64,000 nucleotides of DNA from Psammoneis japonica (lineage: Eukaryota), in assembly GCA_008632985.1 (NCBI GenBank), contig QPGO01000013.1, forward strand, positions 620,001 through 684,000, in the 5' to 3' direction. Each line of letters starts with the position of its first letter. Positions within the stretch are counted from its first letter, which is position 1. This document shows, piece by piece, positions 1-36,541 of this stretch. Under the pieces are notes generated by a model. It was not told the origin of the DNA. It ran no database searches and saw only the letters and a program-made list of their open reading frames with translations. Position numbers and translations under genes: made by a program.

Positions 1-2884
1 TTTTGCTGAAGTCAAGTGCACCAAAGTTGTTTGATGCTGACAATGGGAGGGCACAAGCAGTGCTGCACATGATGCCATTCTTGGGCTGGACAAAAATGCA
101 CTCTGCTCCTTGTTTGACCATGTGAAACTTGCAGAGTCCAACAAACAGAGTGGTGATGGTTTGCAGCATGGAGTCAAGTGTCCAGGAAGCACCCATGCCT
201 GAAGACATGGTGAGAGTTTGAACTTCAATTTTGACATGCACCATGCAAGAGGGATTGTGTCACAGCAGCAGCAGAAAAAGGCATTCTGTCAAGGAAGTCA
301 AGAACAGAAAAAGAGTGTGCAGGCCAGTTTGGTCGACAACTCCAGTGCAGGCTGTGGCCTGCAGTGAGTGGGTCCAGCCTCTCCTTGAGGAAGTGCAGCC
401 TTGCAACACAGTGACTGCCAAAGAAGAGAAGGAGCAGGAGCAAGAGGAGAAAAGTGAAGACAACAAAGTCTCAGAAGAGAGCACAGTTGAAGCACTGTCA
501 CAGCCACCAGCAACAACAACCAATGAATCCAGATGTCCAGAACTTGCCAAACTGGTCACCCCTGGTGTGATCTTTGACAACAAAGCAGCAAGTGCCTGGC
601 AAGGTGCTGGAGCAGGTGCTCATCAACACAAAAAGAAGGATGCTGTGCATGGAGAACTCACATGTGTGGTCCAGAACAAGAAGTGAGCAAGGTTGCTTGT
701 GTTGCCAAATGCCACCAACAATGACAAGCTCCAAAATGCTTTCTTCAAGAAGACTGTCATGGAGAGCATCAGCAGGAGTTGAGAGTGGCTGCAAGATTGT
801 TGCTGAGTTCACCATTGGACTCATGTCTGATTGCAAACCATCAACAATGTTGGCCAGCACAAAGGTCCTAAAAACAGATCATGTCTGCAACCTGATGGTG
901 CTCTAGACACCAGGGTGACAAGGAAGACTGTGTCTGTGTCTTGTTGCGCCCAAGCTGGCAAAAAAGGACCAGCTGGTGGCCCACTCTGGTGTGCAGGTGT
1001 GAGCACAATGGCTGCAAATGTCATCAAGCAGGCCATGCTGTGGAGAGAAAGACCTTGGGCTTGACTCTCAGAAAAGAAAAAGGGCAACACTTTTGTGAGC
1101 AAGCAGGAGACCACTTGGGGCACATGCTGGGGCTCACTGTGCTGGCTTTGTTGCATTGCAGCTGGAGGGAGAGAGCCAGGGGAAGTTTCACATTGCTGCA
1201 ATCATGAAATGCAAGGGGCAAGCATGTGATGCCATGAAAAAACAGTGGTCACATTTGAAAAAATTTGTTGCTGTGGTTCAGAGCTGAAATGTGCTTGACA
1301 AGAAGCCTGTGTTTTGATTCAGTGCTCATCCTTCATTGCAAAGGGGCAGCTTTTTGCAATTGACCAAATCAGCAAAGTGGGAAACCAGACTCAAGAAAAT
1401 TTGGTGTTGCAGCAATGTGTGGGCTCTTGACAAAATGACCCCTGCACTGGCAAAGCAGCAGGAGACAACAATGAGTGAAACATTCTTCATTTCTGTGCAC
1501 ACACATGGTCAGTTGTTTTGTTGCTCATTGGCTGGAGCATGCCAACAATTTGATTTGTTCATTTGTCAACTGTGGTGCACACTTTGCAATTTTGCTCTCT
1601 TGTGATGTTTGCTTCTGCCCTGGCAATGTTTGGCATTTGGTGCATGCTCTTGTTTCATGCTCTCATTTCATTGACTTTGCCCCCTCTTTTCTTAAGACAT
1701 TGTCCTGCCACCTCTTGCAGTCTGTTCTGCATCTCAGTGTTCTTGGCTGTGCTGCTTTTCATTGTGTGTGAGATGCAAGACAGCAATCCCTGACAGAAGA
1801 CAGCAGAGAAGTTGTCAGTTTGGCACTTTTTGTTTGGCAAGCATGGCACAATGCTGCTGTTTCTGCTTGCCTGTGTGCAGTGTTGCAGCACTTTGTTTCT
1901 TGTTCTTGGCTGTTTTTGTCAACTTGTCTGAGTTTCAAGAACAAAAAAAGGCAAAAAAGTGTCAACTTGTTTGTTTGCCACAAGCTTCCTGCTCCTTCGT
2001 CACACTTCTGACCTCTCACCTTTCCTGCAGCTTTTTTTTTTGTCAGTGTGTGAAGAGTCCTGGTTTTTGTCATTGCTTGTGTGCTGCTTGGGTGCACCCT
2101 GTGTTTGAGTTGTTTTGTGTGGCTGTGATGTGCCTTTTTTGCCATGGAGCTGAGCCAGTCAGCCTGGCAACCATTGCCTGTGTCATTTTTCAAGTGGTCA
2201 TTTTTTAAAAGCATTTTTGTCACATTTGTTTTTGATGTTTAGAGTCCTTTGAATCAACTTTTGGCAGATGAGTCATTTCACTGGTCTTTGTTGATGATGC
2301 ACCTCATTTGTGGTGGGGTTGTCATTTGTTCACCAGCTGCATGTTGAACATAATTTCAGACAGATGCAGCACATCTGTGTTCAAAGGAGACTGATGCCTC
2401 AATTTTTATGATCTCAGCTGGCTCTTGTCAAGAGTGAAATTTTCAAATTTGTGCTGGTCCACATGGCTTGTTTGTGTTTGCAAGACCACTGCTGTCACTT
2501 GCAGCTGATCTTTGCAACCGACCCAGCACATGCGCCCACAACAACCTTTGGTGTTGCTGCACTCTTGTCATGGTTGAAACTCATGGGCAGGAAGTCAGAA
2601 GAGGTCATGAAGTTGGTCACACAGGTGGTCGTGGACAAGGTGATTGTGGAGCTGGTCAAGCAAGAGGTCAACTGGTCTGGTCCATCCACGGTGCCAGGTG
2701 TGTGGGAATTGCCAGCACACAGCAGCTCCCAGAGACATGAGACAAGGGGGGCACTGCAGCTGCAGCACCTCCTGCCAATGTTCCTCCTCCCAAACAAGCA
2801 GCTGCACCATGTGCCAATGCAATCATGCGCTGTTGTGGCCCCATGTTGCCTTGTCTGTGACAGGTCATGGAGCAGACTTGTTCA

Positions 2885-3800
2885 GAGTGAAGGGGCCTCA
2901 TGATGGCGCCACCAACCAAGCCAACAACAGCAGGCGAGGGGCGCTGGTGGTCTCTGGTGGATCCCAGGTGACATTTCAAGAGCTGTGGTTGAGCAATGCA
3001 AGGCCAGTGTTGTGCAGTTGTGGCACCCTGTCGTGTCCTCCAAGCCAGAACAAGCACACTTCAAACTCCCAAGAACTCCGAAATGAAAGGACCCCATGAT
3101 GGCAGGCGCCATCCAACCCAACAAGAACTGCAAGCTGAGGAAGCTGGTGGTGTCTGACAGACCCCAGGCAACAGCCATTTTAAGAACCATGGTTGAGCAT
3201 TGCAAGGTTTGTTTTGCAGGGTCATGACCCCATGCCACCTTGACAGCAGGAGAGCAGACTTGAGTCTCCAAACTCCACAGGGAAAGGATCCCATGATGGC
3301 ACCAATGATGAACCTGACCAAGCTGAGGGTGTTGGTGGTCTCTGGTGGACTTCAGATGAGACTTTGAGAACTGTGGTTGGCCGTTGCAAGGTTGATCTCA
3401 GGTGTCATGACCCCATGTTACCTTGTCCCCCCAGCCCCCAAAATGGCAGCAGACTTGAACTTTGAACTTCTCTAAACTCCAGAGTGAAGAAAGGGCCCCG
3501 TGATGGTGCCAACAAACCCAACAACAGCAAGCTGCAGGCACTGGTTGTGTGTGGTCAACACCCCCAGGGGACAGCACTTTAAGGAGCATGGCTTGGTTGG
3601 GCAGTGCATGGCCTGTTTTTGCAGTTGTGGCTCCCTGTCACACCATCCTCTGTGCCAGAAAGAGGCTTCAAACCCACAGCTCCATGGTGAAAAGACCCCA
3701 TGATGGGGCAGACCAACCCAACAAGAGCAGGCTGAGGACATTGGTGGTGTCTGGTGGGTGCCAGGGATCACTTTAAGAACCACAGCTGAGCAGTGCAAGA
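2885..3800. repeat. Degenerate tandem repeat, unit about 200 bp, about 5 copies
   Basis: The motif ccatgatgg...aaccaac...gctgagg...tggtggtctctggtgg...actttaagaac recurs at about 2892, 3089, 3286, 3493 and 3693. Confidence 0.75.
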
Positions 3801-6349
3801 CCTGAAATCAAATGATGGAACCTTGTTTTTTGAGCTTTTCTGATTGGGCCAGCCCCACTTTTTTGGCTTGAATTTGCCAAAATGGCTTGTGATTTTTGCA
3901 AAAAAAAATTTTGCCACACTTGCAACGTGGCAGCTGTGGCAATTTTGGACAATTGAGGTGAGTGCAAAGGAGGGAGTCCTTTCACCAAGTCTTGTTTGTT
4001 TTGTGTTCCTTTTGCAGCATCAAAGGTCAGATGGGCATCAAAAGTTTGATGGCACCCACTGCACTTTGCCACACATGTCTGCTTGCACCATCAAGATGCA
4101 CCCATGTTGTGGTGCACATGCTGCGTTGCTTCAGCTTTTCAGATGAGACAAAAAATGCTGCCAAAATGAAAGACACAAAACAAAAAGGCTCTGCAGAGTC
4201 ATGACAGGGGGCAAGGATGGCTGAGAAGAGGGCACTTTCAGCCATGTGTCTCACTTCAAGCCAGAAGTGATGCTGACTGCTTTGTGGTTGACGGCACTGC
4301 TGTGTGGAACCCAACCATGTCAACACTTGCAGAGTGTGACTTTCTTGTTCAGGCATGTCTTTTCTTGTGATGACTTGCAGGGCTTGCAAAGATTGATGGG
4401 AGGTGCAAGAGATGTGTTTTGAACATGAGCAAATTGCAACAAGAGTTGGAGGTTGCACTCTTCAGATCTTGCTTGCTCACAATGTTCATCACTCAACTGT
4501 TTTGTGCATTGTCCATGCCTTGGTTTGCTGCACAAGAGGAAAAAGAGCAAGCAGGCTCATGCAGGGAAGGTTCAATGCAACAAAGTGCTCATGTTGAAGA
4601 ACCCAAGAAAACAATGGTGGTTGATGATTTGATGAGCAGGACTCATGCACTTCAAGCAATGCTCAGGTCTCCACTTTGCCCAGCATGGCACCAAGATCTC
4701 ATGGAGTGAGCTCAAAGTCATTGTTTGCTCCAGCTGTGTGTTGTGTTTTGCAGGTTTTGTGCAACATCCAGTGGCTGCTGTTTGCAGAGTTGTGCGTGGG
4801 TTAAAGGTTTTGCCCAGCTTTGCCAGAGGTGCAATTTTGCAATGGGTGATTGCTGCAAGCACTGGAGATGGGCACAGTCCAAAAAATGTTTGATGACATT
4901 TGGTGCATGTTTTGCTCTGGTCTTCTGACAGCATGCACAGCATCTGCAGCAGTGCAGCCCCTGGAGCCTTCATCACTTTGCATTGTTTCTCAGGCCATGC
5001 GCTGATCTGGGTCTGACTTTGCAGGCAAGCTTTGTCTCTCCATGAGCTGCACAATGAAGTTGAGTGCTGTGCACCCATGCATCCTCACGCAGTTGCTTGA
5101 CTTAAAGGACAGCCAATGTGCTGGCCTTGTTCAAAAAGGAAAAATGACCTGTTGAAAAGATGGGTCATGGCAGCACACAAAGAGCAAGCCCCAACTTGTT
5201 CACAGTGGGATGGTGAGGTCAAATTGCTCAATCATGAGCATTTGTGGCAACAGGAAGCATGAACAATGACAGAGACCAAATGACAACATGATGGCCATTG
5301 TGGGGGCTGGCTGCTTTGCATTGTGAATTGGGAGCAAGAGTGCAAACTGACATGGCAGGTGGAAGGAAAAGGGCTCAAGTTTAAAATTGTGCTGTCTGTC
5401 AAAAGGGCTTGGTTCAATGAGGAGCTCATTTTGAAAAGAAAGTCTTTTATTGTCATCAGACATGCAGCCAGGACACAGTGGATTGTGGCAGGGGGGTGCA
5501 CCATTGTTGTTGAAACAATGGTTTGTTGGTGGCTCAGTTGTGTGGGGGTGTCTGATGTGACCAAGAGACAAGTGCAACAGAAACACAGAAAGAACATGCA
5601 GCGGGCAACTGAAGGGAAGCATTTCCAAACAAATGAGTCAACTCTGAACAAGATGCTGTGCTGCAAAACATTGCAAATCTGTGACCACTGAAAAAATGAG
5701 CTGCCAACCTGAAGATGATGACTTTGGCAGTGCCAGATTTGTGGCTGAGAATGAACAAGCAGCAAAGCATCATTTGGAGCTGAGATGACAGAGAGCACCT
5801 TGGTTTTGAAAAAATGTGGTGCCTGTGGAGAGTGCAATCAATGTGCTGCAACATTTTGTTTCTTGTTCATGAGTGGTGGGCCATTGATCTTCTTGTGAAG
5901 CACAAAAACATGTTGCAGAGATGCATGCCTCCAGAGAAAGCTTGAAACAGCTTTGGGTGCTGGCTGTCACAGAGCTGCAAAGATGAGGCTGTGCAGCAAG
6001 CAGCAGCATCAGCACACCAAAGCAAGTGGCTCTCTGTTCCTTGACAAGAACAAATGCCAACTTGTGTGCTCTCACACAACGTCAAGGCTGAGAACAAAAC
6101 AACAGCACTCAAGAAGGATGGTGGGCAAGATGGGTCAGTCCAACAAAACACAAACTTGCAATGCCTGTTGTTGCTTCTGGTTCAATGCTCTTGGCTGCTG
6201 AGAAAAGCAGCATCATGCTGCACAACACCTTTCTGTTGGCAACTGGCAATCTCTGTCACAGTGTGGTGTTTGGCAAAGAAGGCATGCCCCTGCACTGGCG
6301 TGCAACAATGTCAACATTTTAGCATGCAACAGTCTGAAAAAGCATCCAA

Positions 6350-7460
6350 CAGAAGCAGAGGTGGACATGTGGACACAAGAGGAGCTCCAGGAGTCTCTTG
6401 AAGCCTTCAATGATGAGAAAAAGAGCAGACTGCCTTCTTGTTGGCCCCATGAGCCAAAGGGTGCCATTTTGTCAGTCTTGCACATGGTGCATCTGGGACT
6501 TGCCAAGGACACTTGGATGAGCCAGAGGACTGGCCACAAGACATGGCCCCACACAGTGATGAGGATGAGGAGTGTTGAGGACACTTGTTGGGAAGTGGCG
6601 GTTGACCATCAGATGCCATCCACAACCAACAGAAAATGAAAACTTGCCAATGTGGTGATGAAAGAGACAAAGGCTCAGTGAACCAAGGCAGCCAACATTC
6701 CTTTTTAACATCAGTGCAGTGCTCCTGAGATGACACAGGCAATGCAATGGAAAGGTTTGAAGAGTTGTCAACAGACACACTGCAAGAGTTGCAACAAAAA
6801 GACTTCTTTGGGGAAAGAGCTGGAAGATGTGATGACCACATTGCAGCTGAAACAAAACAAGGACATCATCAAGCACACCATGAGTTGGGGTGCACCTTTG
6901 CAGAGGATGCTTGCCATCACTCCACTGAGGAGGCACTGAAGCAACAATGCATGTTGCCAATGGCCCTCATGGAGTGTGCTTCATTGGTCTGCACATCAAG
7001 ATCTCAGCAGCTTGGTCAGATGACCTTGTGGGTCAACTTGCAGAGAGAACCCAAAGAGGTGCTGCCGTGAGGCTGCTTGTCCAAATGACATTGATGAGAA
7101 ATGCACTCCCAAGCAAAGCAACTCCTTGCTGTGCTCCATTGCATCATTGCTGCACTGACAAACCAAGCACCACATTGATGGATGAAAAAATCCAGAAACC
7201 AGAGAAAAGAGCAGCAGCAGAGCTTTCATTGTGCTGAGCATGATGCCAAAACTTCACTCAAAGCAGAAGGAGAGGGTTGCATTGTTGCACTCTAACTTGG
7301 CAGCCAGCACCACAATGGCCACACAGATGCACAACATTGACAAAACACCTTTGCCCACAAAGTTCTTTTTCAATGGATCATGTCATCTCAGAGTGGCTGC
7401 TGCAGATGCACACCTTGCATGTAAATTTTCACACTCTGGAGACACCCATTTTCTTTTGTG
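6350..7460 (+). mobile_element. Possible piggyBac-like DDE transposase relic
   Basis: Fragments HGVCFIGLHIK..ERTQRG (about 6965-7060) and DAHLACKF (about 7405) resemble my recollection of stramenopile piggyBac-like motifs (GLRFIGxxKT, DAYLAYKF). The region is heavily frameshifted and no TIR was seen. Confidence 0.3.
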
Positions 7461-7736
7461 CAAATGTCCAACCAGCAACATCTGCCTGAGTGTGCCAACA
7501 TTTTTCATGCGCACAGTGTGCAACCAAAATTCCCTTGTTGATTCTGAACTTTTTTGCACAGGAGTTTTGACCACATTTTGGCCCAAATTTGGTGCTCGTG
7601 GGACCCAGCCAATCTTGCAGGACCCAGCCATTGTCCTGACATTTCCATGTGAATGTTGTCACCAGACATTTTGCGTGAACCAACAGCAGCCAAAACCATC
7701 ACTCTCTCTTTTCTTGTGATGTCTTTCTTGTCTTGT

Positions 7737-7761
7737 CCCCCCCCCCCCCCCCCCCCCCCCC
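7737..7761. repeat. Poly-C tract (25 nt)
   Basis: Seen directly. Confidence 0.9.
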
Positions 7762-7829
7762 ATCCCAAGATGTTTCATCTGACACCCAAATCCACAAATC
7801 ATTGGTGGCTGTGGCAGCAAAAAAGAAAT

Positions 7830-8310
7830 GTTGCCAATTGCCCCAACTCTGGTTGGTCCTTTCTCATTTTGCTCTCAGATTGTCAGTCAAGTGAGGGGAA
7901 AGCATGATGTCTGCCATGGCAAAGGCAGAATCACACAACCCTTGTCAATGCTGAGGACAATTTTGCAAATGGAGAGGCTGCTGTGCCTTTGCCTCTTTTC
8001 CAACCAGTCTGTCACAGGAGACAGGAGACCATGAGTGGGACAGAGGGACAATGTTGCTCAAGGCAATCCTTGAGGTGCTTGCAATTTTTCTTTTTTTCAT
8101 GGGTTTCTGGGACTTTCTCTGGATCTTTTGAGCAGTGTGATTTGGTGCCCATGTCCTCTGCTGCAGCTCAAACATCAAATGTGGCATCAGCAAATTGCCT
8201 CCACCCCAACCGCATGCCATGGTGTTGCCCCTGTCACCATCTTTTGACTTCCTGAGGTTTCTGTTGACTTTGGCATGCTTGATCTTCTCACTGTCATCTT
8301 TTGAGGAGCT
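7830..8310 (-). mobile_element. Second, truncated CRE-like LINE fragment (RLE endonuclease region)
   Basis: 8060-8300 aligns by eye with 10005-10232. The two regions give parallel translations (GGGNLLMPHLMF..SRIALSNI versus GGGNLLMLHLML..SRLVWANI). Confidence 0.7.
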
Positions 8311-9799
8311 CCTTGCATTGCACAATCCCTTGCAGCTCCGCATCATTGAAGGTTTTGGTGTTGTGCTGATCAGATGCAGCACTCCCTTGACTGGTTTTCA
8401 GGCTGCTGTCCAGGAGTCACTTGGTTGATTGAATGAGCACTTCATGCTTTCCTGCACCCAAATCATCCATGTGTTTGATGAGAAATGAGCAAATGTTCTT
8501 GGCTCCTTTTGCCTCTCCACACCTTTGTCCAATCACTCTTTGATGTGCTGCAAGCATTTCCAAGCTCCATTTTTGGTCGACAACCCCATTTGTCAGCTCT
8601 GCAGTTGATTTGATGAATCACTGAGACAGACACAGGGTGCCAGCTGGTGCCAATGGCTTTGTCAAATGCAGTCACCCTCAACTCTGTCATCCAGATTTAG
8701 ACTGGCTGTCACACTTCATGCGCATGACCACCACAAAGAATGCAGTCTGCTTCAGAGCTGAAAGCCCTGGGTGGGTTCCAAGGGGCAGCAGCACCAACAC
8801 CCCTCTTGATTTTCCTCCATTTCCCTGTCAGTCTGACTTGGCTGGCAGCTCTTTTTCCCTTGAGGCAAGGTTGATCTCGTCCTCACCATTGTCACTCTCA
8901 ATGATTTCCTCTGCTTGTTTCTTTTGAGTGTGTTGTCCTTTTTGATTGCCAGAAGTGTTGCGGCATTCTTTTTCCTGCTGTCACTGGGTGCTGGGCTGTT
9001 GATGACTTGGCAAATGATTGGATTGGTGGGCAGGTGGAGATTTCAGGGAGACTGAAAGCTTCCACAGCTTTTCACCCGTTGTGAGTCCTTTCTTGTTCTT
9101 TCATTGCTGGAAGCAGGTGAAAGAGTGGCATGGTTTGTTGCTGCTGCAGCATGGACACCCATGCATTTGACCTGTTGGCACAATTGTGCAACCACAGCAC
9201 TTGCCAATTGTTGCTCTTTGGTGTTTGGCTCTTCTTGACATCAACCCAAAGCAGCACTTGAGTCTCTGCTTGTGCTCTTTTTGCAGGGGGCTTTGAGGGT
9301 GTCAGATTGAAGCTGCCATGGTCTCCTGTGCCCCATGTTGTTGTCACCCAACAGGGCCACCGGGTTTTGGTGGGTGATGTCACTTTGTGCCATGCAGTGC
9401 CAAATTGTTCAACTTTCAAATGAGTCAGTCACATTTGAATTTTCTCTCAATTCTCCAGCCAATGAGACAGTTTTTGAACAAATTCTGGGAAAGAAAGGGG
9501 CTCCAACTTGTGCAGTGTGTGCACAGCCAAAGCCACCAGGGTGCAGATGAAGTTGGTGGAATTGCAAACAGGTGTGGGGTTGCATGCCACCCACAATTGA
9601 AAGCAGTCATTGTTTGTGTGTCATGTGTTGTGGCATTGATTTGAACAGTTTTGGGGTGGACTTGTTGGCAATGCATGCATGCTTGTCATCACCAATTGGT
9701 GCTCATTCAATGATGTTGGCTCTTGAGCTGGTGGAGTTGGAGGGATGAGGAGCTGGCTCTGTGGCCCTCCCACATGGGGCGGCACTGGCTCATCTGACT

Positions 9800-12050
9800 G
9801 GATGGACCAACAAAGGCAGAGGTGAGCAGTGCATTTGATTGTGGCACTCATTTGGGCATTCACAAAGCCACATGCCTTGGAGTGTGGCCTTTGCCACTTG
9901 TCCAAGATCTTGGCTGCCATTGTGTGCAGCACAGCCCCCAACTCTTTTCTGACCAATCCATCAGAAGTTGCCATGAATGGGGTGAAGTGTCAATGTTGGC
10001 CCAAACAAGCCTTGAGATGCTTGTGCTTTTTCTCCCTTTTGTGGGCTTCCAGGACTTTTTCCAGATCTTTTGTCCTGGATGGTTGGGCATCCATGTCTGC
10101 CACCCCAACATCAAGTGCAGCATCAGCAGATTGCCCCCACCAACCATGCACCAGAATGTCACCTCTGTCACCACCCTTTGACTTCCTGAGTTTCTTGGTG
10201 ACTTCAGCTTGCTCATTGTTCTCAGCATCATCCAAATGAACTTGTCATTCTGAGAGATGACTGGGCTGCTGGCCTTTTTGACACTCCAGTGCATGTTGCA
10301 TGGAAATTTGTGCTTGCATTTGTCACACTCTTGTGGCAGATTAGGAGGTGCTGCATTGCAGTGCATGCAGAGAGCATCACAGAATTCTTGGTGGGACAAG
10401 CAAGTGCTGCTTGCAAGAAATGGATGGATGGTCAGCCAAGCTCCCATTTGGGTGCTTCTCTGCATGGCTCCAGCTTTTTCATCTGGCAGAGCATTGAGAA
10501 TGTTGCAAAGTTCATGCTCATTTGTGACATGGACTTGCAATCCTGGAGTGAGGGCTGGACTTCCTTGGAGTGTGCCAGCAGACTGCCAATTGGAGCTGAG
10601 TGCAAGTGCTTGGCTCACAATTCCCCAAAGCAGACTTTGTGGGACAAGGGATGGAAAGTCTTGCACATTCAATGGACAGGGAGGGTCATCCAGCCTTGTG
10701 GTCATCTTGGCTCAGCAAGTTGTTGAAAAGTGCCAGAAGAAAACAATGCACAATTGCAGCCTCAATCTTGGCAATTAACTTCTTCACAACACATTGGAGA
10801 CACTGCTGCTCATGCCATGAACCACATGTGCACCATCTGAGGGTGCTTGGCTGCACAACTCAGCTGGTCCTTTGATGACACCACCAGCCCACTTCTCAGA
10901 CTTCTCTTCCATCCTCTTTAGAAATTCTTTGTCCTTGCCAATGAAACTGCAAAGGTGTGTCTGCTTCCAGAGGCAGTGGTGAAGCCAAGATCTCCAAAGC
11001 AATGATTTGCTGCATCCAAGAAGTTGTGACTGGAGATGACTGAGATGTTCTTGTCATTGTCAGCTGGGAAGCATCTGACTCATGAACCTGGCTCTCTTGC
11101 AAACATGGAAAAAGTTCTCTGATTTGTTCAAACACACCAGCAGCTGCTGAGTCATCAGCATGCCATGAGGCAAATTCTTTGTTCAGTTGCCTGTTGCCTG
11201 ACTGGCAGGAGAAGACCCAGTCTACAAGCAACCACCACAAGTGGGTCACTCCACATGACAACCCTTCCTTGCTGAATGAGAAAAATGCCACACCAAAGCA
11301 TCCTCTGTTCACCAGGGCACTCCAACATTTGGGCACAAGGGTCAGAGATGCTTGACATTGTGTGGTGTCAGAATTCTGTTTTCTCCTCATTGAAGCTGTT
11401 GAAGGCATTGATGAAGAGAAGCCTGAATTCATCTTTGAATTTGTGCTGCTCCCAAAGGAGATCAACTGCATCAATTCCTCCCTTGATGCCTGCCTTGAGG
11501 CCAGCAGCACAAAATTGGTCAGCTCCACAGATGTCTTTGACTTCTGAGCCAGCACAAACCACCATCGCAGCTTCTGCACAATCCTTTGCCAGATCTCACC
11601 TGTGCCAGCCAGCCAGACACCTGGATTTGGGTTGAGAGCAAGCAGACATTTGGCCATGAGAGCGCGGCAGAGCCAGCCCATGGTGTCCAGTTTGTGAGCC
11701 TCCCAAGTGCCTCTCTTGGGAGTCCACTGGCATCTCCATGGCAGAGAAGCCAGCTTTGGTTTGTGAGCCTCCCAAGTGCCTCTCTTGGGAGTCCACTGGC
11801 ATCTCCATGGCAGAGAAACCAGCTTTGGAAACCACCTTGGCGATGGCTGAGCCAGCCAAGTTTGCCATCACACCCAGGTGGGGGCATCTTGCTGCTTTCT
11901 TCTCAACAGCACCATCTGAGACTGGCATGTCTTGGAAGTCTGGCAGCTTGCCAAAGTGTCTTGAAAGTGGGCTTCTTCTGGAACCCCAGCTTCTGGATGC
12001 TTTGCCAAGAGGACATCGCGTGGTGGGCTGGATCCTTGGTCTTGTCCGCA
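9800..12050 (-). mobile_element. Decayed non-LTR retrotransposon, CRE/R2-like (RT, zinc knuckle, restriction-like endonuclease)
   Basis: Motifs in order: LLALNPNPGVWLAGTGEIWQR, GADQFCAAGLKAGIKGG, LLFINAFNSFNE, SKEG, WHADD (for WYADD, 11165-11151), GAWLT..LSHQEFCDALC..PPNLPQECDKC, RGDILVHGWW..DVGVADMDA..EKKHKHLKAC..DGLV..KWQRPHS. Many frameshifts. Confidence 0.85.
11691..11828. repeat. 69-bp direct tandem duplication inside the LINE relic
   Basis: 11691-11759 and 11760-11828 differ at one base (gaagcc versus gaaacc). Confidence 0.9.
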
Positions 12051-12866
12051 AACCCGCCCGGGGATCGAGAGCCCCCCTTTTTGGCTGTTGGCTGTGCAGT
12101 GTGCTGCCTCACACAAGTTTCCTTGCAGCACCACACAGTCAAAGGCTTTGATGTGCTGGTCAGATGATGCGGCCCTTCCTCAGCTGGTTTTCTGGGTGCT
12201 CTCCTCTGGGGAAGCCGTTCCGCGGGTTGGACAAGAAGCAGCTCTCTTTCCTGCACACCCCAGTCATTCTTGGCACCTTTTGCTTTTCCATCTTGCTGCA
12301 AAGTCACCATTTGAAATGCTGTGAGCCTCTCCGAGTTCCACGTCTGCCGCTGGGTCGCACATCGCATTGCTGTGTCTCGGGTGGGGCACCAGCCGTCCAG
12401 ATTTGCGCCGTCACTTTGATGCATTATCCGCCTGATCACAAATCCCACCAGCAGAGATAGAACCCTGCGAGAACGCCTTGCAGTTACAGTATGTACAGTA
12501 CAGCACATGTTCCACAACATTCAAAATATCCATTTTTTTAAAAGAAAGGAAACATCTCTGCTGCGATACAAAGGAGCTAAACAGCAACCATTTATTTAAA
12601 TGCGCTGGCAACGTTCCATTATGTACTATACGCCAATGATGATTTGATCTTGATTCAGGAACGACGTGTTTTGCGACCTGCGACTGTTTTTCGCGATCGC
12701 AACGGTCACATGATGATTCGATTGATCTATCAAGCAGCGTTTTCGCGTTTGAGAACTCACAATTTGAAGAGATAGTTTACATACAGTACTGGTAGTTCTA
12801 GTAGAGAGTGTGGGCGTGAGCAGAGTACTCTGAGACATTCTTCATATTATATCAACTCGGGCAATC

Positions 12867-15800
12867 ATGACAGGAGCAAAACCATTGCTCAATGTCATTC
12901 TTGCAGTACTCGCATTCGTCTTGGTGGTTCGTGCTGTTGATGAAGACATCACCAAAGAGATTTTCGACAACGACAAGAGAGACGAAGCTTTTTGGCAACG
13001 ACTTTTGCAAGATTCTATTGACAGTATAACTCCACCTCCGACGCCACCACCTACGCCCCCCCCTGTTATTACAGATCCTCCCTCTCCTGCGCCGTCGACC
13101 CCTGAACCCACCACGGATCCACCTGTGCCAACGACAGCTCCTCCTAGTACTCCTGCGCCGTCGACCTCTGAACCTACTACAGAGCCACCTGTGCCAACGA
13201 CAGCTCCTCCTAGTACTCCTGCGCCGTCGACCTCTGAACCTACGACAGAGCCACCTGTGCCAACGACAGCTCCTCCTAGCACTCCTGCGCCGTCGACCTC
13301 TGAACCCACCACGGATTCACCAGTACCAACGACAGCTCCTCCTAGTACTCCTGCGCCGTCGACCTCTCAACCTACTACAGAGCCACCTGTGCCAACGACA
13401 GCTCCTCCTAGTACTCCTGCGCCGTCGACCTCTCAACCTACTACAGAGCCACCTGTGCCAACGACAGCTCCTCCTAGCACTCCTGCACCGACGACCCCTG
13501 AACCAACGACAGCAGTACCCACATCTCAGCAAGATGTGGCAGACTACATTGAACAAGTCGTGTTAGGCAGGCCCTTTGACCTAGATGTACTGTGGATGAC
13601 AGCCACTGCCGTACCAGAAGGTTCTTTTGTCCGCGACCGGGACCTTGAGGTTGCGGACGAGCCTGTACCTTATGATATGACGTGGGTTGTCATGCTCGAC
13701 GAGACGCCATTGGCCAACTGGGGACACCCTGTGACGTGGATATATGTTAGTGACACTCTAATGGAGCATGTAGTTGTAACTGGTAAGGATTTTCCACCCA
13801 CAGTATGGTTGGGAGAAGGAAGCAAAACTGTGTTTGAATGTGCGGCAGTGACTCCCATTGGTTGTCCAACCGATCCGCCGATTGCTACTGGTGGTGCCGT
13901 GTCGGCGACCATGGGTGCCGCGATGCGTCAGCTCCAGGATTTACGAGTCGACGACAAGGGTTGTCTCTATGCAATACTTCTTTCTGGTGGTGTTGATGAT
14001 AGGAATAACAGGAACAGGTACGCCACCAACCTCAAGAGTGCCTACAATAAACTTCGAGAGTGTGGCTACCCTGCCAATCAGATTTTCACTTATTACACGG
14101 ATGGGAGCGACCCGCTTGATCTTGACAACGCGGATGGTGACAATGATGACGCAACCGGGAGCGACATTACCGGCGGTACCAATGAAACCATTGTTAGGAT
14201 GAAGATCCGAGAGCTCTGCACGACTCTTAATCCAGATCGAGACACGCTCTTCATCTACACAACCAATCACGGGGGAGAGAATTCAGGACTCTACCTTTGG
14301 GACTTCAATGGAGACGGCAGGGACGATGCAGATGAAATCTATACTGTTGATGAACTCGCTGATGACACCGCCGATTGCATGGTCTGCCGTCTGTTCATTA
14401 CAATGGACCAGTGCTTCTCTGGCCAGTTCACGTCAATCGCTAGTCGTGCCACACATGACAATGTTGTAGTCCATACGGCTGCCAATTCAAGCGAGTCGAG
14501 CTACTGTCGCCAGTATATGGACTACTGGGAAGATGAAGACCCTTCGACCTCAACAATTAATGAAATGCATGCTGCAGTTGTTGCTGACATGGCTCCTCCG
14601 CAACGCGCTTGTGCTGCGGGGAGCAATCATTGCGGTGGATGTGTTTCAGATGCAGATTGCCCTGGCGGCGGCACGTGCAGAAATATCAGAACTTCTACGC
14701 CACAGAGTGCCGGCGATGCCAATGGTGATGTCTCGATATGCGACTGCTCGACGGGCAACGGTGGCAATGATTTCATCCTCAGCTTCCTGTACAATCAATT
14801 TGTTACCTCACCGGATCCTCAAAATGTTGAGCTACACCTTGCTTCCGTAGCGGCGAATACAAGCATGGTGACCATTGAATATCCTGTAGGAACACCGTTT
14901 GGAACCCCGATAAACATCACCAACAATGGGTTTACGATTGTGACTTTGCCGACGAATGCTTCTGTCGATTGGCAGCCCAATACTATCAGTGAAAATTCAG
15001 TAAGGGTCAGCGGAGAGGATGAATTCATTGTTTATATGGCGAATCGATTGAGAGCTCAATCGGATGCTTCGCTTGCCTTACCAATAGCCGCAACGAATAC
15101 AGAGTACATCGTCGTCGACTACAATGGCACAGTGCTTATGCAGAATGGTCTGCCTACTCATCCTGAGTTTGTCGTCACGGCATTGCATAATGACACAGTG
15201 GTCACGATTACACCTTCAGAGGATCTGGTTGGTCGAAGTGCAGGTGTACCCTTTGCCGTCACTCTGGACCGTGGCGAATCTTACTTTGGACAAGCTAACG
15301 AATCTACAGTAACTTTGACAGGTTCCACCATCTCAGCCTCCCGCCCAGTCTCTGTGAGCAATGGAGCCCACTGCTCCGACGTGCCTACAGGAACAGACTT
15401 TTGTGACCACCTCTTTGAGGTTGCCGTGCCTGTTCAGTCATGGGGCACGGCCATTGCGGTGGCGAATCTCCCCGACCGACCAAATGGAAGTGTGTATCGA
15501 ATTGTGGCCTCTGAGGATAACAGTGTCATCACTCAAGATGGTGCGACAATTGCTACACTCGATGCCAATCAGTACTTTGAGACCACACCGCTCCCTGGAG
15601 ACCACATTTTTGCGAGTGACAAGCCTATCTTCGTGGCCCAATTCATGACGGGTAGCGCACCTCAGGGGGGCACGGTTGGCGACCCAGCAATGGGCAACAT
15701 GGTGCCAATCGATCAATACCGCACAGAATATAAATTCTCGACCTTTGGCGGTGCGCAGTTTGGGACCAACTACGTCGTGATTATTGCGAATGATACTGAC

Positions 15801-16028
15801 GTTGGCATGGATATGTTGCTGCTCGATGGACAACCAGTGTCGACTGGAAACTTTACGCAGATTGGTTCGAGTGGCCTATCGTCTGCTACTATTCAACTCT
15901 CGCAAGGTCCTCATACGACAGAGTCCAACGTGAGTGGGCATAGCATTTCGGTTGTCGGTGTTGGGGTTCGTGACGCATACTTGTACACGGGAGGCGCTCG
16001 ATTTGCTGGTTGTGACGACCCCAGCTGA
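12867..16028 (+). CDS. Secreted protein: signal peptide, P/T/S repeats, clan CD (C13/legumain-like) peptidase domain, IgGFc-binding (FCGBP N-terminal-like) domain
   Basis: Uninterrupted 1053-aa ORF with a hydrophobic N-terminus. YAILLSGG..NRY, TLFIYTTNHGG (His at 14268) and FITMDQCFSG (Cys at 14412) match the clan CD dyad. SDASLALP..TEYIV..LTGSTISASRPVSV..CDHLFE..PVQSWGT matches the IgGFc-binding pattern. Confidence 0.85.
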   Translation: MTGAKPLLNVILAVLAFVLVVRAVDEDITKEIFDNDKRDEAFWQRLLQDSIDSITPPPTPPPTPPPVITDPPSPAPSTPEPTTDPPVPTTAPPSTPAPSTSEPTTEPPVPTTAPPSTPAPSTSEPTTEPPVPTTAPPSTPAPSTSEPTTDSPVPTTAPPSTPAPSTSQPTTEPPVPTTAPPSTPAPSTSQPTTEPPVPTTAPPSTPAPTTPEPTTAVPTSQQDVADYIEQVVLGRPFDLDVLWMTATAVPEGSFVRDRDLEVADEPVPYDMTWVVMLDETPLANWGHPVTWIYVSDTLMEHVVVTGKDFPPTVWLGEGSKTVFECAAVTPIGCPTDPPIATGGAVSATMGAAMRQLQDLRVDDKGCLYAILLSGGVDDRNNRNRYATNLKSAYNKLRECGYPANQIFTYYTDGSDPLDLDNADGDNDDATGSDITGGTNETIVRMKIRELCTTLNPDRDTLFIYTTNHGGENSGLYLWDFNGDGRDDADEIYTVDELADDTADCMVCRLFITMDQCFSGQFTSIASRATHDNVVVHTAANSSESSYCRQYMDYWEDEDPSTSTINEMHAAVVADMAPPQRACAAGSNHCGGCVSDADCPGGGTCRNIRTSTPQSAGDANGDVSICDCSTGNGGNDFILSFLYNQFVTSPDPQNVELHLASVAANTSMVTIEYPVGTPFGTPINITNNGFTIVTLPTNASVDWQPNTISENSVRVSGEDEFIVYMANRLRAQSDASLALPIAATNTEYIVVDYNGTVLMQNGLPTHPEFVVTALHNDTVVTITPSEDLVGRSAGVPFAVTLDRGESYFGQANESTVTLTGSTISASRPVSVSNGAHCSDVPTGTDFCDHLFEVAVPVQSWGTAIAVANLPDRPNGSVYRIVASEDNSVITQDGATIATLDANQYFETTPLPGDHIFASDKPIFVAQFMTGSAPQGGTVGDPAMGNMVPIDQYRTEYKFSTFGGAQFGTNYVVIIANDTDVGMDMLLLDGQPVSTGNFTQIGSSGLSSATIQLSQGPHTTESNVSGHSISVVGVGVRDAYLYTGGARFAGCDDPS
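13085..13512 (+). repeat. Coding tandem repeat, 66-bp (22-aa) unit PPVPTTAPPSTPAPSTSEPTTE, about 6.5 copies
   Basis: Near-identical units seen directly. Confidence 0.95.
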
Positions 16029-21974: not shown

Positions 21975-23234
21975 ATGGAGCAACCCGACGGTGTGTATTC
22001 GATTCATTACAACTCGGAGAATCACTGTTCTGTGATTTTTCAGAACCGTGGATCGGTTTGGCAAAAGGCATGTTAAGATTTTGCAGTGTCGCTCGTTGCA
22101 GTAGTCCCGGATCTGCAATTCGCTCACCAACTACTGTACTCGTTTCTTATACATAATTTCCACTCAGGTCCTTCCCTATGCCATTCTCAATGCATCCGTC
22201 ATGATTTTGATTTCCTACCTCAAGGAATATCAAGACATTGATTTGAGCATTACCGACAAGGGCCATTCCTTCATGACGCTCTTTGTCGCCTTTTTGATTG
22301 TTTCTCGCGTTTCCATTTCACTGGGACGGTACAACGAAGCCCGTACCAATCTCGGTGTCATGTACCGCGAGGCACGCGAATTGATTCAAAACATGAGTGT
22401 CTTTACCAAGGAAGATCAATCGACACAAGCCAAGGAGTGGCGTCATGAAACGGCCTATTATGTGTGTCTCTTGTTGCGTCTTGCCATGGCGGTGATTGAT
22501 TATCCCACGAAAAAACAAGACTGTACGGATTTGCCCGAATTGACGGGTTATCCCAAGGAATTTGTGCAAAAGCATTTGCCCAATAGTGATTGGACGTCGC
22601 ATCAAGCGGCGTGGGAAAACAATATGCGGGTGCCCATTCGCATGGCGTATTTGGTACGAACGACTCTTTATAGCTCCAAGGATCGACTCAAGGTGCCCTT
22701 GGAAACTTGGCAAATTGGAAAATTGTTTGGTGCGGTTGATACGTTTATGGGTGGATATTATGGGTAAGCTTTTTATTGTGTTTTGTGTGTTGCTACACTG
22801 TTGTTTGTTCTGCGCGACTCACTCCTCGCCCCTGTATCTCTTTTCTTTCCAGAATGCGCAAATTCATGACAACGCCCTTTCCCTTTCCCCTCGTCCAAAT
22901 GGCTCGTACCTTTTTGTTTCTCTACGTCTTTACACTCCCCTTTGCACTCTTGTCGGATTCGAGTGAATGGATCGCACACGCCACGGTCATTTTCATGGTG
23001 ACCTATGGCTTTGTCGGACTCGAAACCGTTTCCATTGAATTGGACGATCCCTTTGGAGATGATGAGAATGATTTTGATAATTTGGGCATGGCTCTGACGG
23101 CCTTTGAAGATACCTTTTTGTCCATTGACGATGTCGATGGACCCGAGTGGACCGAAAAGTTGAGGGTCAAAATGAATCCTCCCGAAATGAATGGTGGAGT
23201 TACGCCGACGGAAACGACCAATTTGATTGTGTAA
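21975..23234 (+). CDS. Bestrophin-family (UPF0187-type) anion channel, exons 21975-22067, 22168-22763, 22853-23234
   Basis: GSVWQK|VLPY, FLIVSR..RYNEAR, TPFPFPLVQMARTFLFLYVFTLPF, GLETVSIELDDPFGDDENDFD. The first intron is GC-AG. Confidence 0.9.
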
Positions 23235-23588
23235 CAACAAAAGTTGTTGTGACGATGAGAAACAGTTGTTGTTGGAGTAGAGTAGTATTTTAGAGCGAGT
23301 ATGTGTGGTCGTTTGGGGTGAGCTAGGACCTCTCAAGCTTACAGGTTCACTCGAGCCCCTTCTAGCTATAGAGGCTGCAACGTAGTAGTGTAACCTCAAA
23401 GGCTACGTGTTTGTAACGAAAAAAGAAAACCGAGTATGATGTAGGTCGATTTGAGTATAGTAGTATTTCTTAGGACGAGCGTAATCGGATTGTAGACCAG
23501 AGAGATGTCAACGCTTCATCACTCTCAAGCTCTACCGTAGAGAAAGGATCATTATCCTGAGAGACTACTTTTGAGAAACAAAATTTAA

Positions 23589-24356
23589 TTATTCTTTCTC
23601 AAACGACACGTCATCGTCGTCACTCTCTGTAAAGGAACGCTCGTCTAGGGATTCTCGAATGTCTTGTTCCAAGAGCCAAATTTGCTCGCGTTGCACGTCT
23701 TCCAAGAGATCCAGTCTTCGAAACTTGTCCCAAAGAAGCAAAGAACGAACATGTTCCACCACCAAGAGGGTATCCTCCTCTGAGTCGCCGTGGATTCGAA
23801 ATTTCAAAATTTGCTTGTCTGGATCACTGCTGTGGAAAAAGACAATTTCGTTGACATTTTTGTCGTCACTACAAACATTTACTTTTCCAATCTGACTCAG
23901 CGGAATCCAATACACTAGCTCTTTTGTGGAGTCCATTGTCGTTTCAGATAGATTGCTCGTCAAGAGTTGATCCGAGTCGCAAAAGTCTTTGTTTTTCGCG
24001 TCAAGCTGCGATGATATTTGAATCACTGGCCCCAAAGGAAAATCTCTCACGCAAAGAGTCGAGTTGAGCCATAAGACTTTTGTTTCTCTTTCTTCTTCTT
24101 CCTTTATTGTCTCTTCGCAACTCTCCTTGGATGATTCTGCCACTGTCTGCTCTTTCTCTATTCTCTCATCAGAAGAAGTAGAAGAACATGATGTAGCTTT
24201 ACGATGCCATTGGATTGGCAAAGATTCCAGAGCGTCAATGGCTCCACGCGCATCATACTCATCCTCGCTTTCATGACACGGACAAAAGAAACCAAACCAT
24301 ACCAATTTACGCAGTGCACCCACGCGGGAGCAACAACAACAGCAGCAACAAGGCAT
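23589..24356 (-). CDS. Hypothetical protein with poly-Cys N-terminus; paralogue of 16566-17345
   Basis: 255-aa ORF sharing colinear motifs with the 259-aa ORF. Confidence 0.75.
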   Translation of the reverse strand: MPCCCCCCCSRVGALRKLVWFGFFCPCHESEDEYDARGAIDALESLPIQWHRKATSCSSTSSDERIEKEQTVAESSKESCEETIKEEEERETKVLWLNSTLCVRDFPLGPVIQISSQLDAKNKDFCDSDQLLTSNLSETTMDSTKELVYWIPLSQIGKVNVCSDDKNVNEIVFFHSSDPDKQILKFRIHGDSEEDTLLVVEHVRSLLLWDKFRRLDLLEDVQREQIWLLEQDIRESLDERSFTESDDDDVSFEKE

Positions 24357-25033
24357 TCTTTTTGAGAGAGGTCGTTGCTACCGTCCTACCGTACCAGGGG
24401 GTAGGCTTGCGACTCTCTACTTTATTTTAGTAGAACGAGTGCGGTATAAAATCAAGTTTTCTTTCCTGACGACTGCGGCTTTATAAAAATCACGTTTTCT
24501 CTCCCGATAACCATAGAGATGCCCAGTTGTCCCCACTCCAAGATAGACAATGATCTCCACAGTAGACACAGCGTAAGGTATCGCAACACCCCTCTCAAGA
24601 ACTTCGAAACTCCCCGCTTCTCGACTGGACTAAACAACATTGTCGCACCGCATTCCGCATTGGATGCAACGCGAGCAAGTCAGTCGTGGGATGTGATTAT
24701 CGTCATTCGGAACTGGATACATACAAGTAGTGCTCACGACTGAACTACCCGGGGGTGCGGCGGCGCCTGATCGCGCGTCCGATTTTGCTTGATTGAATGA
24801 TTTGCTGTGCTCTGCAGCAAACGAGACCAAGAACTATAACTAAACTGCAAAAATAACAATCGCTATCATTCTCTTTTCCCATTACAATTTGCCATATGCT
24901 CTAATTAGTATTCGCGAGAATAATATATCTTAACGGGAACACGCTACACATGAAAACATTGAAAAGAATCTTCAGATAGTGCAACTCGGGTCGATGGGCG
25001 TCGACAAGCATAGAGTAGAACATTGATTGAACA

Positions 25034-25826
25034 TTAACAGCAGTTGGACATTGCGCTCCGTCTATCATCTTCTCCAGTTCCTCCATCATTGCCCAAAACA
25101 ACAGTGTCTCTCACCACCGACGGAGTTTCCGAAGCACCAGCTCCAGGCATACCACCGCTGCCCTCCAACTCATCGATTCTCTTGTGTTTAATAGTCGTAG
25201 CTAATGCCGTAAACATGCTCTCTACATTGTGCCCCGTCAAAGCAGAGGTTTCAAAAAACTGGACACCATATTCTTCCGCCAGATTCTTGCCCTCGTCAAA
25301 TGTCACAACCCGATCATTGTCGAGATCACTCTTGTTACCACAAAGGACAATATCGCAGTCTGGCGGGGCTCGGGTTTTAATATCACGCATCCAACCAACC
25401 ACGTGATCAAATGAAGGGCGATTTGAAATATCATAGCAAAGAACAAAGCCATCGGCTCGTCCGAAAAAGTTCGATGTCAGCGATCGAAAGCGTTCTTGTC
25501 CAGCGGTATCCCAGAGTTGAAGACGCATTGGAGCTCCTTCAATCTAACCGACGACAAAAATTCGAAACCGGTCAGCAACGTCCATAACTAGAAGAAATAT
25601 ACTCATCCAACATTATAAATCATACCTTGACCATTTTATCTCTGTAATCGACTCCGATTGTAGTAACAAACTTGGTTGAAAACACGTTCTGGTCGAATCG
25701 GAGCACCAGCGACGTCTTTCCACACGCTGAATCGCCTACCATTAGCAGTCGTACAATATAAGCCCCCTTTGCTCCCATTTGCAAGGGACGCGGCTGCCCC
25801 GATGCTCCTTGGTCTTGTGTTGCCAT
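25034..25826 (-). CDS. Rab small GTPase (Rab8/Rab1-like), exons 25826-25626 and 25543-25034
   Basis: GDSACGKT, TTIGVDY, WDTAGQERF, GNKSD, ETSA and a C-terminal CC prenylation motif. Confidence 0.95.
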
Positions 25827-26669
25827 GGTCAAACGGTATGTTTTCTGAAAGAATGACAATGCAAAAAGCAGCGACACGGACCGTGTGAGCTCGAGAGAGA
25901 CGGTCAACGGAACAAATAATAGCATACGTGACTGAATTTAGAACATTTAGAGATGAATTCTCATCGAACATTCAGATTCTACCAGAACTGAATATTTGGA
26001 TAACCAAAATCCATTAATAAAAACGCGAGTCCGACAAAATGCCATCGCGACGTCGGTTCCCGCCGCCGAACAGTTGAATTTTGCCGGCTCGCAATGACAA
26101 CAACGTGCAACGCAAAAAGCAAAAGGACTGTCCATCAAGGCACTCACAGTTGTCTCGACTATCAGGAAAAAGAAAACAAACAAATCTGTAGTGACCAAAC
26201 TCGATAAGAGATGCTGGGTTGCGACCTAGGCGTTGCGAAAACGCAGACACGGTCTTGTGTGATTGTGTAAAACGTCGTCGTACAAAACGTACGTCGCGTT
26301 ACAGTATTGCCACCAGAACACCCGTTGAATTTTTTGGTACGACGTGTCTCGTAATGTTTGTACGTACACGATTTCCCGTACCCGGTTCAGAATTCAATGG
26401 GATGATTATTCGATCGCTTGGATTTGATCCTCGGTCTCCTCGGTATGGTACTGTAAGTCCCTCTCTCTACTCTACTAGCTAGAGAGGCACTCCTCTCGCA
26501 ATCGTACTGTAGCATGTAAGATACATGCTACAACACCATTCTCTTTTAGACATGCTATGCTAGTCCAGACGCTGAATCTTTGCTGTGCTAAAAGGAATCA
26601 CCGAACAAATGGACTCGACTTTTGGGATTCTATATTACAGCGTTAGTTGCTAGCTTCTAGAGAGAAGAC

Positions 26670-27611: not shown

Positions 27612-28102
27612 GGTGCTTTTGACGGAATTCAAAAGTGGATCGCGTTCAACGTGAGCAACGACCACGATGAGATTTTGCTCGCGGCATGCCAATCTTTCCT
27701 TGGTATGTTTCTCGTAGGACTCTACGTGAGCGAAATGGCGGGCATGGGTCTTGCACGGTCCGTCCCTTGAACTTCAAGGATCGCGTTGACGCGCGCGGCA
27801 CGCGCTGTTTGTTTACGAACAATGAAGCTTCGTTGCTGTATAAAAGAATACATTTGATGTTGCCTGACCTCGCAATAACGGACGACGACACGACGACAAT
27901 GACAATGACAACCTGACAACGACCGTATGCTATCCGACAACCTCAGCACAGAGACACTCCGAGCACAAAGTGACAGGCAACGATACCATTAAGCAACACT
28001 GAAGAAGCGACAAGCGAAGAAGTAGATTGATAGCGACCAAGCACGTACTGAGAGCCTTCTTATTAGTACTCAACTTCCTTTCTGGAGATTCTCACTGTAA
28101 GC

Positions 28103-36340: not shown

Positions 36341-36541
36341 TCTCAATGTACTGTTTCTTTGAGTCGGATGGACAGACGGATCCAACTCTCGTCGAACCAA
36401 AAACGAACCTTCTCCATTCCCGAGCAAAAGAAGAGACCTTACCTGATACATGATGTGTAGCTACAATTAGATAGCAATGTGGAGCAATGCATCTCTCTAA
36501 ATAACCAACTATACGTCTAAACAAATACAATGCGATGGGTC

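Follow-up and report, generated by a model that had tools for sequence, protein, structure and literature searches.

TpA depletion around CpG decay in bounded blocks of a diatom genome: footprint of a candidate DNA hypermutation process in Psammoneis japonica

Hypermutation directed at the dinucleotide TpA has been measured in the chlorarachniophyte alga Bigelowiella natans, and we here describe a footprint with the same signature in the diatom Psammoneis japonica, in a stretch of 64,000 bp (assembly GCA_008632985.1, contig QPGO01000013.1, positions 620,001 to 684,000 of the forward strand; hereafter the window) where six bounded blocks, the first of which ends in a decayed reverse-transcriptase retroelement, have lost nearly all of their TA. 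The main text of the preprint on B. natans (Mettrop et al., bioRxiv 10.64898/2026.01.13.699255) reports two integrated viral regions in which A-to-G or T-to-C changes, every one at TpA, account for 230 of the 231 single-nucleotide mutations, as measured in mutation-accumulation lines, with rates about 1000 times the genome baseline and with activity that is episodic between lines. It also describes 124 TpA-poor clusters, rich in CpA and TpG and enriched for reverse-transcriptase and transposase domains, and its authors propose an ADAT2-type deaminase as a candidate. The original prediction for the window, made from the sequence alone, knew of no described mechanism, a statement that is superseded by these measurements of the same TpA hypermutation.

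We consider it likely that relics of mobile DNA make up the blocks and were altered in place, after insertion, by two context-specific transition processes. The first would act on TpA in either strand and replace A:T by G:C, TA becoming TG or CA, and the second would change C:G to T:A at CpG, CG likewise becoming TG or CA. The changes observed run in these directions, use both strands, are specific to TpA, lie in bounded segments, and leave a wider footprint for TA than for CG.

As far as the main text of the preprint describes it, the process in B. natans shares with the window the change of TpA to TpG or CpA on both strands, the confinement to bounded regions of foreign or, here, probably mobile DNA, and the depletion of TpA with a gain of CpA and TpG. 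The hosts belong to different groups, a rhizarian there and a stramenopile here; new mutations were recorded there, whereas only a historical footprint is seen here; and a virus was the target there, whereas the target identified here is a retroelement. The depletion in the window is at saturation, with observed/expected ratios (O/E) for TA of 0.03-0.09, as compared to a Rho of 0.45 given in that text for the region from a nucleocytoplasmic large DNA virus (NCLDV). Diatoms are not mentioned in the main text of the preprint, and a full-text literature search found the signature described in B. natans only and no description of it in diatoms; a term look-up in the accessible part of a Chaetoceros muelleri genome preprint found none of the terms TpA, CpG and methylation. 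What is new here is the first diatom case, at saturation, of a signature that was itself already described in B. natans. Added features are the CpG decay nested in a wider TA footprint (CpG has no occurrence in the main text of the B. natans preprint), the flank rule that spares TTAA (wider sequence context is not in that main text), and the random use of both strands.

Several other known systems bear comparison. Hyper-editing of double-stranded RNA by ADAR and A-to-inosine editing of mRNA by ADAT-type enzymes prefer an adenine that follows U or T, and the edited A is read as G; their substrate is RNA, whereas the changes seen here became fixed in both strands of DNA and span non-coding margins. 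The Pol-eta phase of immunoglobulin somatic hypermutation acts downstream of cytosine deamination and yields A-to-G changes at TA within a target region, with WA as its motif. Fungal repeat-induced point mutation (RIP), according to the accounts that we consulted, turns CpA into TpA, so that new TA and stop codons arise and G+C falls. It resembles the case described here as a transition hypermutation that is confined to mobile or duplicated DNA and whose relics escape similarity searches, and it can be seen as a functional analogue with the opposite chemical direction.

Six blocks depleted in TA

Dinucleotide O/E was counted in intervals of 1 kb along the window, and a two-state segmentation was run on TA versus TG/CA, with CG-depleted segments delimited likewise. 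Over positions 1-12000, TA occurs 0-5 times per interval (O/E 0.00-0.08) and CG 0-8 times (O/E 0.00-0.13), with TG+CA at an O/E of 1.69-1.98; outside the six blocks, there are 21-60 TA per interval. The segmentation returned the six segments given as blocks in the list below, which sum to 26,971 bp, or 42.1% of the window, and have a TA O/E of 0.03-0.09 and a TG+CA O/E of 1.63-1.86. These segments recover the blocks of the original prediction almost to the base. Its estimate by eye of about 25 TA in the first 12 kb equals the 25 counted in 4-12422, where the TA rate in normal regions of the window would give about 500 and base composition about 800 (O/E 0.03). Its observation of TA loss is confirmed. 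It had understated the depletion of CG, which in all blocks but one of the six is nearly as strong as that of TA.

Block 1, 4-12422, no strand: 25 TA (O/E 0.03), CG-depleted core 4-12014, TA-only margin 12015-12422.
Decayed reverse-transcriptase retroelement in block 1, 9810-11675, minus strand: found with the family profile, split over three frames, 4 TA and 3 CG.
Second, more decayed fragment of the retroelement family, 8021-8215, minus strand: profile match with an E-value of 4e-7.
Block 2, 35317-36347, no strand: TA O/E 0.06, CG O/E 0.19, no family match.
Block 3, 39562-41720, no strand: TA O/E 0.05, CG O/E 0.41, core 39715-41301, TA-only margins on both sides.
Repeat of about 600 bp common to blocks 3 and 4, block 3 copy, 39587-40187, plus strand: CG kept at 10 sites that are TG or CA in the block 4 copy.
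Block 4, 44280-46220, no strand: TA O/E 0.08, CG O/E 0.31, CG-depleted core 44369-46004.
The same repeat, block 4 copy, 44885-45482, plus strand: 80% identity over 559 aligned bases, TG opposite CA at 13 sites.
Block 5, 48019-54710, no strand: TA O/E 0.05, CG O/E 0.13, CG-depleted core 48501-54648, no family match.
Block 6, 60721-63449, no strand: 14 TA (O/E 0.09), 122 CG (O/E 0.66), TG+CA O/E 1.63.
Small element in block 6, 61696-62148, plus strand: direct terminal repeats of 112 bp, 91% alike, 339 bp apart.

Five blocks were pooled as core blocks (21,197 bp) and compared to the remaining 42,803 bp. The core blocks contain 54 TA (O/E 0.04) and 107 CG (O/E 0.09), together with 2537 TG (O/E 1.85) and 2412 CA (O/E 1.89), as compared to O/E values of 0.54 for TA, 0.94 for CG and 1.26 for TG/CA in the remainder, while the G+C content is unchanged (0.487 in blocks versus 0.482 elsewhere). 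The edges of the blocks are sharp against the adjoining genes, and neighbouring genes are spared. A change of C to T at CpA, as in RIP, does not fit these values for TA, CA and G+C: TA is destroyed here, G+C stays the same, and the TA arm makes no stop codons. RIP is triggered by duplication; the genic tandem repeats at 55355-58215 (70-83% identity) are unaffected, with a TA O/E of 0.79, although copy number may have differed at the time of mutation. GC-biased gene conversion was also considered and rejected, as G+C is unchanged and TA is the only A/T-containing step that was lost.

The sequence is reproduced by the Logan contigs of run X1, which were built independently from the same sample, possibly the window's own source. 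They share 97% of sampled 31-mers with the window, and they bridge the junctions between blocks and genes and continue into the neighbouring genes, with two differing letters over 44001-48130, two over 48101-53655 and none over 53637-55579. That an artefact of sequencing, base-calling or polishing in modified DNA produced the pattern is therefore hardly credible, even though the DNA is found in this one sample only: contigs assembled from 31-mers that cross into genes with 0-2 other letters each argue against it, and an artefact would not replace conserved tyrosines by histidine or cysteine inside a recognisable protein alignment. Four in-block sites differ between the window and the run X1 contigs (51022, 48618, 45724 and 44892), three of them at pyrimidine-purine steps (TA versus TG at 51022, CG versus CA at 48618, CA versus CG at 45724), which are too few to interpret.

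The retroelement of block 1 and its tyrosine and arginine codons

An exhaustive HMMER search with the frame 9863-10711(-) identified 106 relatives (best E-value 1.2e-9). Full-length relatives bear a weak RVT_1 domain upstream of the matched part, scoring 31.1 bits in P0097 against a cut-off of 29.6, and BLASTP placed the block 1 element colinear with P0097. A family profile, built from 16 relatives and run against the window, matched 9810-11675(-) in pieces with E-values of 3e-33, 9e-22 and 5e-12 plus two weaker ones, which together represent a nearly complete element in three frames; the same profile had no match in blocks 2-6. The DNA at 9971-10232 is repeated at 8029-8298 with 73% identity, and of the 19 double transitions between the two stretches, 11 pair TG with CA. 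By this homology, block 1 is proven to end in a dead reverse-transcriptase retroelement. Word-indexed homologue searches gave no match for the frame 62348-63325(-) and none for the frame 10899-11867(-), which was later placed by BLASTP and the family profile.

The original prediction had taken the blocks for dead transposons and pseudogenes, which holds for the retroelement of block 1; the other blocks have no family match. Its gypsy RNase H was not recovered in a read-through Pfam scan of 49501-52502(+), which gave no families in three frames at E-values up to 1, its MYND domain is a sub-threshold match (E-value 0.055), and no match was obtained for the frame that contains its UDP-glycosyltransferase (UGT) motif, the frame next to it giving a hit of glycosyltransferase type at an E-value of 0.16 only. 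Pfam searches of 102 stop-to-stop frames of block 1 at E-values up to 0.05 gave five noise-level matches, all under the cut-offs. Among 123 frames of the other blocks at E-values up to 0.01, the only match was to CP12, also under its cut-off. This near-threshold match in block 3, at 40166-40405(+), scores 22.4 bits against a cut-off of 22.7 (E-value 2e-4) and may represent a decayed copy of a host gene.

Intact coding capacity of the blocks was considered and rejected, as no frame is longer than predicted by an order-2 Markov model: the longest block open frames have 323, 204 and 326 amino acids, as compared to simulated 95th percentiles of 336, 357 and 293 and 99th percentiles of 436, 416 and 368. 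Open frames in the blocks are long because TAA and TAG are lacking; with almost no TA, TGA alone ends frames.

The direction of change can be read from conserved codons of the retroelement, with 20 intact relatives scored with the same family profile as controls. Consensus tyrosines are kept at 0 of 19 positions in the window element and at 228 of 320 in the controls (Fisher p 2e-10), and 11 of the 19 are histidine (6) or cysteine (5), as compared to 12 of 320 in the controls (Fisher p 5e-10). Tyrosine is encoded by TAY, histidine by CAY and cysteine by TGY, so that these replacements equal the changes of TA to CA and of TA to TG. Consensus arginines are kept at 10 of 49 positions versus 588 of 831 (Fisher p 2e-12), and are replaced by cysteine, histidine, glutamine, tryptophan or a stop at 22 of 49 versus 42 of 831 (Fisher p 3e-14), which fits the change of CGN to TGN or CAN. 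A weakness of these counts is that two of the profile pieces overlap in different frames, so that a few columns may have been counted twice. A conservative recount with three non-overlapping pieces gives tyrosine kept at 0 of 11 positions with 6 of 11 changed to histidine or cysteine, and arginine kept at 6 of 28 with 11 changed to histidine, glutamine, cysteine or a stop. The change of WYADD to WHADD named in the original prediction was also confirmed: WHADD of the window element aligns to the W-x-ADD of the family, where the 13 relatives with the motif have Y in nine cases, F in three and C in one, and the relative that shares SAA after W-x-ADD has Y.

Could the elements always have been nearly free of TA and CG, for instance because they were selected to escape a host nuclease? 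We regard such an intrinsic composition as very improbable. For comparison, 369 related loci were found in metagenome contigs with an alignment of 9 sequences, and the best 80 all have an ordinary composition (TA O/E 0.30-0.77, CG O/E 0.22-1.17); in 54 of them, the longest open frame spans 98% or more of the match. The window retroelement has O/E values of 0.033 for TA and 0.027 for CG, and ordinary TA in the 80 relatives means that TA-poverty is not a family trait. It should be kept in mind that the relatives used as controls are only distantly related to the element, at 33-58% identity to the query protein, and that taking the best-scoring 80 of 369 loci excluded decayed copies by ranking. 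An intrinsic composition would also not explain why the replacements of conserved tyrosines and arginines are just those expected from single transitions at TA or CG, nor why open frames in the blocks are no longer than the Markov model predicts. In its favour is the small, TA-poor element of block 6, whose approximately 450 bp may have been poor in TA throughout the family.

Run X1 contigs accumulate on this small element (61696-62148), with a summed word depth of about 22,000-39,000 as compared to about 62 for neighbouring contigs, and with many joints and loose ends at 61830-61833 and 62022-62032; TTAA is retained in both repeats. It is probably a multi-copy miniature element, judging from these contig patterns. 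Tandem Repeats Finder returned no rows for 60400-63800, and an Rfam scan of the same region gave no matches at E-values up to 0.1.

A protein of 396 amino acids from an environmental assembly, P0030, was noted beside the controls. It keeps none of 10 consensus tyrosines, seven of which are cysteine or histidine, including WCADD, and retains 10 of 14 consensus arginines, while its identity to the window copy is only 30%. P0030 resembles a copy, from another genome, in which TA was edited while CpG stayed intact, and it may point to additional hosts.

TA loss beside CpG decay

Decay of methylated CpG resembles the pattern in the blocks in that CG changes to TG or CA on both strands in transposon relics, and it accounts for the CG arm. 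It cannot remove TA. Per 1000 dinucleotides, the gain of TG+CA in the core blocks is 84.1, as compared to losses of 53.1 for CG and 37.8 for TA, and in 61000-63000 the gain is 58.6, with losses of 16.1 for CG and 33.8 for TA, under the assumption, which is a weak point of our interpretation, that the elements began at the composition of the window's normal regions. Since the gain of TG+CA exceeds the loss of CG, a loss of TA is needed too, and methylated-CpG decay alone does not suffice. The two depletions also differ in extent. Nearly all CG-depleted positions are TA-depleted as well (22,833 of 22,994 bp, leaving 161 bp depleted in CG only), whereas 4,571 bp are depleted in TA only, and these lie in the margins of the blocks, over some 150-480 bp, and in the greater part of block 6.

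The main rival to adenine deamination is repair-coupled mutagenesis, by which TA loss would be a by-product of methylation: T:G mismatches from deaminated 5-methylcytosine would be mended by error-prone patch repair that mis-copies at TpA, with no dedicated editor involved. The nesting of nearly all CG-depleted segments in TA-depleted ones is what it would lead one to expect, and the overshoot of TA loss at the edges has roughly the length of a repair patch. However, TA loss extends over 2.7 kb in block 6, where CG still stands at an O/E of 0.66, and P0030 lost 10 of 10 consensus tyrosines while keeping 10 of 14 consensus arginines. A Pol eta-like enzyme, one of the candidates in the original prediction, is disfavoured: its WA signature strikes AA as well as TA, whereas AA is not depleted here (O/E 1.19 in blocks versus 1.11 elsewhere). 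The process in B. natans, moreover, runs without a GC-to-AT excess in the same regions, according to the main text of the preprint (bioRxiv 10.64898/2026.01.13.699255). On balance, we find the repair by-product unlikely, though it deserves more weight than the other alternatives.

TG and CA are used symmetrically in the core blocks (2537 versus 2412), their order along the strand is random (runs-test z of -1.07 to +1.58), and the variance between intervals in the blocks is near binomial (5.6 versus 5.0, 11.6 versus 10.0 and 22.2 versus 20.0), whereas normal regions are over-dispersed. Such random use of both strands counts against the editing of a single RNA or complementary DNA (cDNA) strand and against long strand-coherent tracts. 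It bears on a scenario in which transcripts or cDNA of the retroelement were deaminated by an ADAR- or APOBEC-like enzyme and inserted as edited copies. The only element identified is indeed a retroelement, and differences between copies at TG/CA sites are expected from independent insertions of edited copies too. Editing before integration nevertheless predicts a strand bias, whereas TG and CA are nearly equal and tyrosine changed to histidine six times and to cysteine five times; TA loss also extends to the margins and to sequences with no retroelement signal, and ends sharply against genes. We therefore think this scenario improbable.

Repeats within the blocks carry a trace of the same kind of change. 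In five repeat pairs of the blocks, 31 of the 58 double transitions at adjacent positions set TG against CA, as compared to 5 of 21 in four normal-region pairs, a count that omits the self-aligning overlapping pairs 3084-3425 / 2888-3242 and 55571-58215 / 55355-57915. This excess is the expected scar of independent resolution after duplication, although the discordance of TG and CA alone cannot tell an ancestral TA from an ancestral CG and to that extent does not favour our interpretation.

The surviving TAs follow a flank rule: TA survives in T-TA-A and is lost from R/A-TA-Y, where R is a purine and Y a pyrimidine. TTAA accounts for 18 of the 54 surviving TAs, as compared to 3.3% of TA contexts in normal regions, and CTAA/TTAG are enriched 4-6 fold, while GTAC, ATAT, ATAC and GTAT, which together make up 32.9% of normal contexts, are absent among the 54. 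These contexts differ from those expected from back-mutation out of TG/CA (chi-square p 1e-13). The base 3' of the A and the base 5' of the T are indistinguishable as determinants of the rule. Surviving CGs are enriched in GCGC (27 of 107 versus 4.5% in normal regions). The ratio of TG+CA to TA in the core blocks is 92, and the corresponding ratio for CG is 46; if the blocks are at equilibrium, TA would have been lost about 90 times faster than it was regained.

A TA-directed mutator that is separate from CpG decay, as the original prediction had postulated, is thus supported by the replacement of tyrosine with histidine or cysteine, the mass balance, the TA-only segments, the ordinary composition of the 80 relatives and the reproduction in contigs. 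Of the findings that would have spoken against the prediction, namely intact relatives that are equally TA-poor, a substitution spectrum with no excess of TA to TG/CA and reads that do not reproduce the sequence, none appeared as far as they could be tested; the relatives, although distant, have the ordinary TA content given above. Some observations weigh on the other side. Block 1 is the sole block of the six with a proven transposon identity, so that the case for foreign or mobile targets comes from its reverse-transcriptase retroelement, the other five blocks having no family match, and the 225 stop-to-stop frames of the blocks in total gave no Pfam match above a curated cut-off. The process is, furthermore, known here as a historical footprint in one window.

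The TA-directed process may be a targeted enzymatic deamination of adenine to inosine, read as G, in foreign or silenced DNA, and by analogy it could be of the same kind as that measured in B. natans. The CG-directed process would be the deamination of 5-methylcytosine in methylated transposon DNA, either spontaneous or assisted by the RID-related DNMT4. By the genetic code, TpA editing removes all tyrosine codons, including the tyrosine in Y-x-DD of the reverse transcriptase, and it turns TAA and TAG into CAA, CAG, TGG or TGA and makes no new stop codon; the stop codons in the blocks are supplied by CpG decay, which changes CGA to TGA. Signals of the TATA and AATAAA types would also be erased by TpA editing. 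DNMT4 could contribute to the CG arm: it is a diatom protein of unknown function, reported, in the portion of the survey available to us, from 23 centric and 8 pennate diatoms among 60 surveyed species (PMC9998398).

More tentatively, we put forward the possibility that diatoms have a dedicated DNA adenine-editing defence, which may erase TpA from invading mobile DNA with a flank rule of its own (T-TA-A spared, TA-Y preferred), faster and further-reaching than the decay of methylated CpG. The enzyme might be a naturally occurring adenine deaminase whose substrate is double-stranded DNA or chromatin, and the pathway could be old and widespread in the supergroup of stramenopiles, alveolates and rhizarians (SAR), because the same signature is present in a rhizarian alga. 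A second lineage with TpA-directed hypermutation, from another major group, would turn a single-species curiosity into a candidate for a general genome defence of marine algae, and a system at saturation allows a direct reading of the footprint, of the flank rule and of the link with CpG methylation. Edited relics evade domain searches and may partly explain why much of the repeat DNA in diatoms is unclassified; in Chaetoceros muelleri, the accessible part of the genome preprint gives 38.8% repeats and only 17.9% classified transposons. If the enzyme is a TpA-specific DNA adenine deaminase, it would be of interest for base editing.

Neighbouring genes and minor features

Between the blocks are ordinary eukaryotic genes, including those for a chlorophyll a/c-type antenna protein, an ankyrin protein, a CRAL/TRIO protein, and a kinase with EF-hand and cyclic-nucleotide domains. 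The antenna gene matches chains of the photosystem I-fucoxanthin chlorophyll a/c-binding protein (PSI-FCPI) complex of Chaetoceros gracilis with an E-value of about 1e-115 over 193 residues, which bears out the diatom origin given in the original prediction and by itself points to a diatom of the Chaetoceros type. The segmentation also returned a TA-poor stretch of 433 bp in the ankyrin gene (42344-42776; 2 TA among 67 TA/TG/CA sites), which is probably due to chance or a coding effect.

Contigs of another run, X2, cover only genic parts within 44001-64000, for example by a contig of 1290 nt at 46510-47799, and cover no blocks. Their coverage resembles that of a transcriptome, but the run seems to be recorded as DNA, so that it provides no basis for a conclusion about expression. 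No RNA run is on record for this stretch of DNA.

Two long open frames were noted in addition. The frame at 54910-60243(-) encodes 1777 amino acids with PT-type repeats and contains the internal tandem repeats at 55355-58215, which are 70-83% alike; numerous skips and back-joints in the contigs here suggest variation in repeat number or collapse of the repeats. The frame at 12834-16028(+) encodes 1064 amino acids with a domain of the IgGFc-binding type (E-value 9e-64) and a partial match to Peptidase_C13.

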